From: Candidatus Taylorbacteria bacterium RIFCSPLOWO2_02_FULL_44_35 | GTDB taxonomy: Bacteria; Patescibacteriota; Minisyncoccia; Phycocordibacterales; DSPV01 | Length of the DNA stretch: 42,079 nt | Direction of reading: 5' to 3' | Assembly: GCA_001822695.1 (NCBI GenBank) | Contig: MHSF01000023.1 | Coordinates: forward strand, 1,257 to 43,335 | Shown here: positions 22,095 through 30,160 of the stretch, piece by piece | Numbering within the stretch: the first letter of the stretch is position 1 | Layout of the letters: every line of letters starts with the position of its first letter | The notes under the pieces: model-generated | Databases searched by the model: none | What the model was told of the DNA's origin: nothing | The model's input: only the letters and a program-made list of their open reading frames with translations | Position numbers and translations under genes: made by a program

Positions 22095-22240
22095 TCGTTG
22101 AAACCGCAATAACGGCGGACCGTGTCATCTCGTAGCGAGAGCTTATCGGCTGATCGTTAGTTGCGGAAAACAAACCATTTCATCAAAAAAACGGGTTGTA
22201 TTCCGCAACCAATTAAGCACTTTCAAAGTTCATTTAACTG
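22095..22240 (-). promoter_or_regulatory. structured 5' leader of target gene 2
   Basis: GTTGCGGAA...TTCCGCAAC hairpin (22160-22209), a conserved TCAGCCGATAAG box, and a third TTGCGG segment (22104-22109) next to the start codon. The same layout is seen at 29190-29337. Confidence 0.45.
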
Positions 22241-22351
22241 CCCGAAATACTACCATAATTGCGCCATAAAAGTCAAGCAAAAATACGAAATATGGCTTTA
22301 AATAAGGATATTTAGCAATAGAGAAATGCGTAAATAAAAGAGGAAGCCGCG
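22238..22351. repeat. 114-bp duplicated promoter module (copy 2)
   Basis: See 19916-20029. Confidence 0.85.
22247..22276 (-). promoter_or_regulatory. target-gene promoter (TTGACT-18 nt-TAGTAT), copy 2
   Basis: Identical to 19925-19954. Confidence 0.6.
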
Positions 22352-27952: not shown

Positions 27953-28444
27953 TTACATATCCGAATAGGTCTGCATTTTGTTGTTAAGTTGTTTAAATTT
28001 TACGCCAGCTTCCTTGAAAATTTCCTTGCTTCTTTTGCCAGCATGATAATCATTTTCGGCCACCACTCGTTTAATGCCAGCGTTGATAATTATTTTGGCG
28101 CAAGTATAACAAGGACACATCTGGCAATACAAAACTGCTTCGGCGGTGCTGACACCAGATCGGGCCGCTTGGGCAATGGCATTTTGTTCGGCATGAGTAG
28201 TCCGAATACAATGGCGAGATTGCGTTCCGTCATCATTAATAACTGTATGCATTTCGTGCCCAACCTTATCGCAATGGCCACAACCAGCGGGAGCGCCAAC
28301 ATAGCCGGTAGAAATAATTCTTTTATCTTTAACGATAACGCAACCGGTCCGGCCTCGAGCGCAAGTTGCTCGAGCGCCAACCGAACGCATAATGCCGATA
28401 AAATATTTATCCCATGACAACCGTTTTTGCTGTGGTTTTTTCAC
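27953..28444 (-). CDS. dCMP deaminase (ComEB family)
   Basis: HAEQNAI ... CQMCPCYTCAKIIINAGI zinc motifs and an N-terminal SWDKYFIGI. The GTG at 28444 is preferred because the longer start (28507) lies in the loop of terminator hairpin 28490-28521. Confidence 0.85.
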   Translation of the reverse strand: MKKPQQKRLSWDKYFIGIMRSVGARATCARGRTGCVIVKDKRIISTGYVGAPAGCGHCDKVGHEMHTVINDDGTQSRHCIRTTHAEQNAIAQAARSGVSTAEAVLYCQMCPCYTCAKIIINAGIKRVVAENDYHAGKRSKEIFKEAGVKFKQLNNKMQTYSDM

Positions 28445-28451
28445 AAACGAA

Positions 28452-28480
28452 AGTATAAGCGTAAAAATAATTTTTGTAAA
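28452..28480 (-). promoter_or_regulatory. candidate promoter TTTACA-17 nt-TATACT, 7 nt before the GTG
   Basis: Hexamers read directly. Implies a near-leaderless mRNA. Confidence 0.35.
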
Positions 28481-28521
28481 TAAAGAAAAGACCCCGTTCC
28501 GATACACATCGGAACGGGGTC
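28478..28521 (-). terminator. strong intrinsic terminator
   Basis: GACCCCGTTCCGAT gtgt ATCGGAACGGGGTC, a perfect 14-bp stem, followed by TTTTCTTTATTT on the minus strand. Confidence 0.8.
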
Positions 28522-28546
28522 AAGAAGTGTCCAGGAGACCAAAGGG

Positions 28547-29189
28547 TCAAAGGATCCCAAGAAAGTTGCGGAGGAAAAACCGGTCAACAACACCCCACCC
28601 GCCGGCGCCAAACGAGGCCAGGCCGACAGGCCACCTCCTACCAACCCGGCGCACATCGACAACCGAGACGCTTCCGTTTTTGTTTTCCACAAAGAAGGAG
28701 TTGTTCCAACCATCGGTCCGAAGACCAACATCCTCTCCGCTTTCTTGGCGCTCAATGAGCGCCTCAATGGCAGGAAGTGAGGTGTAGCTGCGTTCCTTTG
28801 GGAGTTTTGGAAAAGGTAAGGATACTCTCGGCCACTTGCTTGAAGGTCGCGATCCCCGTCAGCTCGTAGATCTCGAACTGACTCGCATCCTGGGCGGACT
28901 GGTTTGTGGGCAGAAACTTGTCCAAGTCAGCGTCGCGGTAGTAATACCGCGTTTGGTTCGTGAAGCAGTCGGCGGTGGGTTTGGCTTCCGTCGCCGGAAC
29001 CGCCACCACTTTGCCGATAGAACGGAGGACGGATTTGATTTTCTGGCCGAAGTGTTTGACCAGATCGGACCAGAAGGGATGTTCAGATGATCGAAGCGCT
29101 CCTTTCAGGGCTTCCGCGTCATCATTCCGAGGAAACCGACGGGCAATCTGCGCCACAAGTTCGGCAAACATTTCGGGGGTAGTATTCAT
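28547..29189 (-). pseudogene. third DGR-target-like paralogue, split by a +1 frameshift
   Basis: N-terminal frame 28764-29189 shares SSEHPFWSDLVKHFGQK with target 2. A second open frame (28547-28858) encodes ..DGWNNSFFVENKNGSVSVVDVRRVGRRWPVGLASFGAGGWGVVDRFF... Combined length of ~213 aa matches the 208-aa targets. Confidence 0.6.
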
Positions 29190-29337
29190 TTTTTGTTAGC
29201 CGCAACAAAACGCGTATACCGTGTGCCTCGATGTGAGACCTTATCGGCTGACATTTAGTTGCGGAACACGAACTATTTCATTAAGAAACAGGCCATATTC
29301 CGCAACCAATAACTCAATTTCAAGGTTCAAAATTACT
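29190..29337 (-). promoter_or_regulatory. structured 5' leader homologous to the target-2 leader
   Basis: GTTGCGGAA/TTCCGCAAC hairpin (29258-29306), a TCAGCCGATAAG box, and a TTGCGG segment at 29200-29205. Confidence 0.45.
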
Positions 29338-29343
29338 GCCAAT

Positions 29344-29372
29344 ATGCTAGCAAATATTTGGTAGGTTGTCAA
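29344..29372 (-). promoter_or_regulatory. promoter TTGACA-17 nt-TAGCAT
   Basis: Consensus -35 hexamer. Same position relative to the leader as in the two DGR target genes. Confidence 0.55.
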
Positions 29373-29431
29373 TAGGGTAAAATGTGGCTCTGTTAAACGA
29401 TATTGTGGAAGCAAATACCCAAGTTAAAAGT

Positions 29432-30160
29432 TTAATACTTCGGTACGCCGAGATTTTCCGTTTCCATTTCAATATCGCCGAAATTTTTATCTTGAGTTAC
29501 GGCAATCGCGCCTCGCTTGACTAATTCCAACATCGCCAAAAAACCGATGATGATATTAACTTTTTCTTCGCTACCGACTTTGGTAAATTCGCGAAAACTC
29601 ATTTTCAGACAAGTGTTTACCCGTTTGGTCAAATTTTCAATCATCTCTTCCAAACTAATCATCTTTTCCACTACCGCCCGCGCCAATACTTCCGGCTTGG
29701 GCAAATTTTTCAAAATTTCTCTGATGAGTTTGACGGCAAAAACAACTGTTAGGCGACTATCCGGCGAAAAAATCGGTGCTCGTTCCAGCGGCTTCGGTAA
29801 AAAAATCCGATGTTTGCCGAACAAAACATCAACCTTACGACTCAACTCGCGCGTTCGCTGGTAAATTTTAAGCCGTTGTTCCAATTCAGCCACATTACTT
29901 TCTTCTTCATCGGTTAAATCAAGCGTCGGTAAAAGTGATTTTGATTTAATCAAGACCAAAGTGGAAGCGACTAAAATAAAATTGGCGCTTTCCGCTATTG
30001 GAAATTTTTCCAAGCCTTTGACATAAGCGATAAAATCGTCCGCCACTTCGGCCAGCGAGATTTCGTTGATTAAAAGTTTTCGCTTTTCAATCAAATTAAG
30101 CAAAAGTTCTAACGAACCTTCGAATGCCAGTGTTTTTACTTTATACATTTCCGTCTCCAT
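29432..30160 (-). CDS. scpA: segregation and condensation protein A
   Basis: FEGSLELLLNLIEKRKLLINEISLAEVADDF, about 240 aa. Confidence 0.85.
   Translation of the reverse strand: METEMYKVKTLAFEGSLELLLNLIEKRKLLINEISLAEVADDFIAYVKGLEKFPIAESANFILVASTLVLIKSKSLLPTLDLTDEEESNVAELEQRLKIYQRTRELSRKVDVLFGKHRIFLPKPLERAPIFSPDSRLTVVFAVKLIREILKNLPKPEVLARAVVEKMISLEEMIENLTKRVNTCLKMSFREFTKVGSEEKVNIIIGFLAMLELVKRGAIAVTQDKNFGDIEMETENLGVPKY

Follow-up and report, generated by a model that had tools for sequence, protein, structure and literature searches.

What is encoded between the dCMP deaminase gene (27953-28507) and scpA (29432-30160) of Candidatus Taylorbacteria bacterium RIFCSPLOWO2_02_FULL_44_35, where two overlapping reading frames offset by +1 lie in the 42,079-nucleotide stretch of DNA that we analyzed (hereafter, the window)? 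The first-pass annotation had called this locus a remote, frameshifted paralogue of the window's DGR targets, sharing their promoter and leader design, and had left three readings side by side: a decaying target, an assembly indel, or a gene that needs recoding. We propose that the locus is an orphaned, frozen and recently pseudogenised DGR target of a ~220-aa CPR variable-protein family, and we put the probability of this reading, which favors the first of the three, at roughly 0.85. The location described by the annotation, including the distance of 6.4 kb, was borne out, the distance being measured to target 2 of the window. The parts of the locus, all on the minus strand, are as follows.

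28482-29432, minus strand: the whole cassette (951 bp), consisting of promoter, leader, broken gene and terminator, from the scpA stop codon to the dCMP-deaminase upstream region.
29372-29344, minus strand: sigma-70-type promoter, TTGACA-17-TAGCAT with a TG extension, found by promoter scan exactly as the annotation had claimed and conserved in the syntenic orthologues L009-L011.
29190-29343, minus strand: structured 5' leader, from folding against shuffles, consensus pairs and a covariance model.
28764-29189, minus strand: frame A, 141 aa, authentic from residue 1 to about residue 128 and out of frame in its last 13 residues.
28547-28807, minus strand: frame B, 86 codons, encoding the genuine C-terminal half of the protein with its variable region (VR3).
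28565-28675, minus strand: VR3, the TR-homologous stretch, with an adenine-site variable core at 28583-28657.
28805-28818, minus strand: the break, located by DNA alignments to L009, L010, L011, L027 and the paralogue on contig C17.
28481-28521, minus strand: intrinsic terminator with a 14-bp stem (28521-28490) and a T-rich tail, found by terminator scan; the same sequence lies 3' of the intact C17 paralogue.

Because intact relatives cover both frames, frames A and B are one broken gene and not two genes. Ten proteins were recovered with frame A as the query, eight of them 210-223 aa long and continuing into sequence that frame B encodes in the window, and intact homologues of 216-223 aa span the two frames end to end; homologues thus show both frames in one gene, where the annotation had named separate genes as the finding that would speak against it. 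The authentic part of frame A comprises the N-terminal three-helix module and the first half of the fold. Frame B is open from 28858 to a stop at 28547, offset by +1 from frame A, and ends at the normal stop of the family; this second frame (28547-28858) and the strong terminator behind it had both been recognized in the first pass, and the combined length of ~213 aa given there agrees with the 213 aa of the read-through product. That product is 76% identical to P0007, 73% to P0006, 69% to P0008, 60% to P0009 and 53% to the G002 target, with end-to-end alignments to P0007, P0006, P0009 and the G002 target. A tRNA scan of the window returned none.

The kinship with the window's own DGR targets is more limited than had been claimed. 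Frame A (28764-29189) does share N-terminal sequence with target 2, in a stretch of 27 residues (59% identical, E = 4e-10, BLASTP) centred on HP(F/L)WSDLVKHF, and BLASTP of frame B against target 2 found no similarity. The locus is therefore a paralogue of target 2 in its 5' module only (promoter, leader and N-terminal helices), whereas its variable domain is of another family and target 1 has no significant similarity to it. Alignment of the conceptual fusion protein gave a matching picture, with the 27-residue N-terminal match to target 2 and end-to-end database homologues but no significant match to target 1.

The intact relatives also locate the break, narrowing it from the interval 28764-28858 proposed in the first pass to 28805-28818. 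In comparison with the orthologues and the C17 paralogue, the window gene is without seven codons (GVSGDIQ) at a deletion junction at 28818|28817 and has one extra base in a CCAAAA run at 28805-28810, a net loss of 20 nt that amounts to a +1 frameshift; alternatively, the break can be described as a single 20-nt deletion together with several substitutions. One Thr codon further downstream is also absent from the window gene. The annotation's second reading, that an assembly or sequencing artefact conceals an intact gene, draws at most on the position of the indel beside short homopolymers (T4, C2, A4) that are miscallable in principle, and we found no support for it. A net loss of 20 nt is unlike a single-base homopolymer miscall, and seven contigs from three JGI and four ENA assemblies, representing different samples and different assemblers, are 100% identical to window positions 28470-29440 over all covered positions. 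Logan contigs in runs X6, X8 and X9, from three studies, matched 28730-28847 and 28524-28759 with zero differences, and P0003, a 99%-identical variant for which an exact look-up returned no record, has the same 141-aa end. Since independent contigs carry the identical allele, the break is not an assembly error, and we give the artefact practically no credence: the break is genuine and has reached fixation, as shown on consensus contigs, below which minority alleles, like minority variants of VR3, are possible.

Three observations were counted against a pseudogene or bear on how long ago the gene was lost. The promoter and leader are free of decay, and the extra base creates an AAA-A context in which a +1 slip would re-pair perfectly and restore the frame; both are points against pseudogenisation. 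In addition, dN/dS is 0.47 after the break (8 substitutions) and 0.45 before it, a comparison that rests on few substitutions and leaves out the C17 rows. As dN/dS is not raised after the break, it gives no positive sign of relaxed selection, and this fits a very recent break without proving loss of function.

These same observations speak for a recoded gene, in which the 213-aa protein would arise either when tRNA-Lys slips by +1 on AAA-A (28808-28805) or when the polymerase slips on the A4 run during transcription: the extra base sits in the CCAAAA run and permits perfect re-pairing, frame B has no stop before the one normal for the family, beyond the variable region, neither promoter nor leader is damaged, and there is no nonsynonymous excess after the break. 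The shift, however, occurs in this lineage alone, in the window allele and its 99% variant, with all other relatives unshifted, and for this reason we consider recoding, the third reading of the annotation, very improbable. Moreover, the break adjoins a deletion of seven residues kept in all aligned intact close relatives, inspection by eye revealed neither an in-frame stop or rare A-site codon nor an upstream Shine-Dalgarno-like element at the site, and sibling populations do without the whole cassette. An A4 run is also short for transcriptional slippage, which is known to be efficient on runs far longer than this.

The recently pseudogenised target belongs to a protein family that an exhaustive search (E up to 0.001) recovered as 421 clusters at 50% identity, with most members 200-250 aa long and the conserved part corresponding to residues 45-213 of P0007. 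Pfam searches of both frames, targets 1 and 2 and 91 family members found no family, a profile search of PDB sequences found nothing meaningful, Foldseek against the PDB gave no match at E up to 0.001, and the ESM Atlas returned unnamed hypothetical-protein clusters only; as far as these searches show, this sizeable CPR family of variable proteins, which lacks both a Pfam model and a solved structure, is new. An AlphaFold model of the intact relative P0007, built from a 91-sequence alignment (pLDDT 91.5), has an N-terminal unit of three helices (residues 1-45) ahead of an alpha/beta domain (residues 50-213), from which the truncation removes helix 140-151 and all four C-terminal strands. When residues 51-213 of the model were compared with VIA-align, scores were weak and none reached 5, the best (Z = 4.0) being tied among TvpA, SenA (8k5i) and CarF (5aoh); the top 50 matches, all with weak Z, were mostly lectin-like or FGE-like domains and included dozens of C-type-lectin domains. 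From these weak yet consistent matches, the variable domain of ~165 aa probably has a C-type-lectin fold.

Gene neighborhoods show that this is a DGR target family and that it occurs in CPR (Patescibacteria). The family member is the gene beside the TR in G002, L053, L002 and L051, and in the first three of these an RT is beside it as well. G002, a genome of the same genus, has in the same chromosomal slot a 228-aa family member followed by a TR, an inverted avd and a 333-aa RT; its TR is situated 369 nt downstream of the VR, and the core TR and VR differ by 22 adenine-site mismatches and 1 other. In another species, L053 contains rluD and then target P0008, TR, avd and RT, while L002 contains target P0009, TR and RT, its mismatches over the initial ~65 nt being A-specific, and L051 contains scpA, target P0005 and TR.

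Several further loci add to the picture of the family. At L051 the VR is at 2416 and the TR at 2812 (reverse strand of the stored locus). The VR of P0005 and P0006 is one codon shorter than the adjacent TR and is identical where a TR is present (L051) and where there is none (L009); such length-mismatched VRs may mark family targets that are no longer rewritten. P0059, a protein of 926 aa, gave five separate domain matches, a pattern which suggests a tandem-repeat form of the variable domain. The C17 paralogue (L001:7065-7580) is intact and consists of the variable domain only, with its own TTGACA promoter and without the leader or the N-terminal helices; it has the same 3' flank and terminator as the window locus, and no cognate TR for it was found in the genome's contigs. 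On contig C29 (L018:1510-1773), an 87-aa open frame adjoining the ribosomal protein S16 gene corresponds to the C-terminal half of the family at ~49% identity and is probably another decayed family fragment.

Judged by its pattern of substitutions, VR3 is a genuine product of mutagenic retrohoming, because it has A-site mismatches to related TRs and is depleted in adenine. Compared with the nearest TR found, that of L050/L053 in another species, it has 22 A-site mismatches, 2 others and one 3-nt gap, and compared with the G002 TR it has ~24 mismatches at A sites and 9 elsewhere; adenine makes up 5.7% of VR3 versus 24.9% of the remainder of the gene. VR3 is one codon shorter than related TRs. 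Homologues are hypervariable, at fixed positions, in the residues that separate SVSVV from RFF(F/L)RNF. The locus thus shows two marks of a DGR target, homology to TR/RT-adjacent genes and VR differences at TR adenines.

The claim that it is a remote target of the window's DGR did not survive: neither the window's TRs nor any other sequence in the assembled genome matches VR3. The genome (584 kb in 32 contigs, 91.6% complete) has three RT loci and contains intact RTs. Two of these loci are the window's own cassettes, in which each TR pairs cleanly with its own VR only. An adenine-tolerant scan of the 32 contigs with VR3 and the VRs of two paralogues found no TR cognate to VR3, and BLAST with the TR regions of G002 and L002 likewise found none in the genome's contigs; at 91.6% completeness, a cognate TR may be hidden in the part of the genome that was not assembled. 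The G002 RT and avd have ~80% DNA identity to the window's cassette-A RT, and thus the enzyme lineage is present here with other templates. Since TR, avd and RT are missing from the slot and the contigs contain no matching TR, VR3 is frozen. There were no differences in VR3 among the seven assemblies, and a single variant-free contig crosses it in each of X6, X8 and X9. Three properties of an active target are therefore lacking: the 20-nt net loss moves the VR out of frame, no cognate TR and RT occur together in the 91.6% complete genome, and no VR variation within or between populations was seen at the level of consensus contigs.

The third DGR-type RT of the genome, on contig C21 (L013:1300-3381), is 331 aa long and is accompanied by an avd-like gene and an adjacent 278-aa protein. 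A direct-repeat search found no TR/VR pair near this RT or near the C29 fragment.

The slot that holds the orphaned target was found in four states in one genus. A complete DGR occupies it in G002, where the DGR ends at the same right boundary and homology to the window resumes at 28481, and the L051 slot probably holds a whole DGR as well. A target alone is present at L009 (P0006 between scpA and dCMP deaminase), at L010 and L011 (P0006 and then dCMP deaminase, with upstream genes beyond the contig end) and at L027 (P0007 and then dCMP deaminase), and a frameshifted target alone in the window. The slot is empty in G003, where the scpA stop codon meets the dCMP-deaminase upstream sequence at exactly 28481|29433 but for two other letters, in G001, where 38 nt separate the flanks, and in a co-occurring population, whose contigs in X6, X8 and X9 make this junction (28481 to 29433) with 3 intervening letters. 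Contig depths of the empty-slot and window-type populations are similar (47, 40 and 6.9 versus 55-71, 48-63 and 5.7-7.7 in X6, X8 and X9, respectively). The cassette is dispensable, as the slot is empty in G001, G003 and the co-occurring population. No target-site duplication is visible at the slot boundaries (28481|28482 and 29432|29433; slot loci L037 in G002, L038 in G001 and L039 in G003).

We considered and rejected an RT remnant at 28444-28479, a stretch whose encoded residues match the end of the G002 RT: it is also present at the empty G003 site and is local dCMP-deaminase upstream sequence, into which the G002 RT frame reads. In G002 that frame (L037:1392-1432) extends ~13 codons into the conserved dCMP-deaminase upstream sequence, and the C-terminal tail of the RT is therefore supplied by the insertion site.

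From the four states we infer a direction of change. The intact protein consists of the N-terminal three-helix module and the ~165-aa domain, the last strands of which carry the variable region, and in the relatives the TR, avd and RT located 3' of the target rewrite this region at adenine-templated positions. With TR, avd and RT absent from the slot in this genome, the variable region is frozen. Loss of the RT and TR probably preceded the frameshift. Owing to the 20-nt net loss at 28805-28818, translation stops after 141 aa, before the ligand-binding half, and the truncated product would presumably be without function. Pseudogene decay is ordinary in itself, and what the locus adds is the evolutionary context of its slot.

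The 5' end of the cassette has a history of its own. The leader (29190-29343) folds with z = -5.06 against shuffles and, as the annotation had claimed, is homologous to that of target 2 (22129-22232), at ~80% identity. RNAalifold of five distinct leaders predicted 34 pairs, seven of them with compensatory changes, in a structure in which GUUGCGGAA/UUCCGCAAC closes a long hairpin, accompanied by a small second helix and, ahead of the start codon, a third UUGCGG segment. The UUGCGG/CCGCAA segment is present in three copies in the leader (29190-29343 and 22110-22250), and close to the start codon these copies could pair into helices that exclude one another. With a covariance model of the leader, matches were obtained in 4 of 41 genomes, namely this genome (target 2 and the present locus, target 3), G002 (its DGR target), G003 (contig C12) and, weakly, G013, and the matches are confined to the upstream regions of DGR-target genes in this genus. 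Rfam gave no match at gathering score for the whole window and no credible family at E up to 5 for the leader; as far as these searches show, a genus-restricted structured leader tied to DGR targets is new. The shared promoter and leader design that the annotation ascribed to the targets holds for targets 2 and 3, whereas target 1 has the promoter region and the TGAACCTTGAAA box in common with target 2 but not the remaining leader.

The leader is 96% identical to that of L009. In a sliding 60-nt comparison with L009, a tract of ~540 bp (28943-29480), which runs from the final 50 nt of scpA through promoter and leader and takes in the first ~80 codons, is 92-100% identical except for 85% over 29303-29361, and its flanks are 67-85% identical. 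Synonymous divergence follows the same contrast, the flanking genes being saturated at such sites, with a dS of 1.2 for scpA between the window and L009, ~2 for dCMP deaminase between the window and L027 (dCMP deaminase versus L009 is left out of this comparison) and 0.16-0.17 for the target gene before the break. A near-identical 5' tract inside diverged flanks indicates that the 5' module was exchanged between species recently. In window target 2 the same module precedes another kind of variable domain, and in G002 a target-2-type module heads the variable domain of the present family; such sharing across domains fits inter-species exchange. That recombination shuffles 5' modules, variable domains and TRs independently is, within the reach of our searches, also new.

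The near-perfect 5' module could also be explained by a function that survives in the truncated 141-aa product or in the leader transcript itself. The identity of 28943-29480 to L009 despite the dS values of scpA and dCMP deaminase, the covariation in the leader, the modelling of the three-helix N-terminal module as a separate unit and the presence of this module before different variable domains all agree with retained function, but recent inter-species recombination of the 5' module explains the high identity equally well. In addition, searches recovered no free-standing homologue of the N-terminal module, the family matches of comparable length including the C-terminal domain, and the truncated product carries half a domain that, according to the model, would not fold alone. 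We therefore regard retained function as improbable. We allow a somewhat better, though still small, chance that the 5' module is a portable control unit, swapped between species before different DGR variable domains and maintained here as a regulatory RNA or small protein; if so, the DGR variable proteins of Patescibacteria would have a dedicated regulator, perhaps one that resembles a riboswitch.

Set beside known systems, the pseudogenised target differs from programmed +1 frameshift genes of the prfB type, with which it shares two overlapping frames offset by +1 and a re-pairing site. The window shift is not conserved in orthologues, being absent from all intact orthologues and from the 421 family clusters, no stop-codon or Shine-Dalgarno stimulator is apparent by eye at the site, and the site arose by a lineage-specific deletion or indel.

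With the lectin-fold variable proteins of DGRs, such as Treponema denticola TvpA (PDB 2Y3C) and Mtd of the Bordetella phage, the family has in common a variable region at the extreme C-terminus, adenine-specific substitutions relative to the TR and an invariant 3' end of the VR, and TvpA is a joint best whole-domain structural match (Z = 4.0, a weak score, with 137 residues aligned). Unlike the TvpA/Mtd type, the window family matches neither a solved structure nor a Pfam family by sequence, is small (~220 aa) with a three-helix N-terminal module, and has an N-terminus that, by eye, is unlike a signal peptide; the window copy, in addition, is frameshifted and without a TR that we could find.

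Non-adjacent or remote targets, as in Treponema and Legionella, resemble the locus in that a VR-bearing gene lies kilobases from an RT on the same chromosome. Under the criterion of Wu et al. 2018 (PMC5758913), a remote target must show A-to-N differences from a TR in its own genome, whereas the window locus has no such TR in the assembled contigs and its VR3 is invariant between assemblies. The window gene is an orphan, not a remote target.

There is also a parallel with the DGRs of CPR bacteria (the CPR set in Wu et al. 2018, PMC5758913; DGR clade 2 in Roux et al. 2021, PMC8144416): the cassettes of G002 and L053, with target, TR, inverted avd and RT, are groundwater CPR DGRs. No domain can be recognised in most targets of CPR bacteria, and their VRs are not assigned to classes (PMC5758913). 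In contrast to such cassettes, the window locus has lost TR, avd and RT. Both surveys catalogued RT-anchored cassettes (PMC5758913, PMC8144416), and a locus like the one described here would therefore escape them; more generally, DGR surveys anchored on the RT-TR-VR triplet miss frozen or decaying targets. The four states of one slot within one genus offer a natural series for the dismantling of a DGR cassette.
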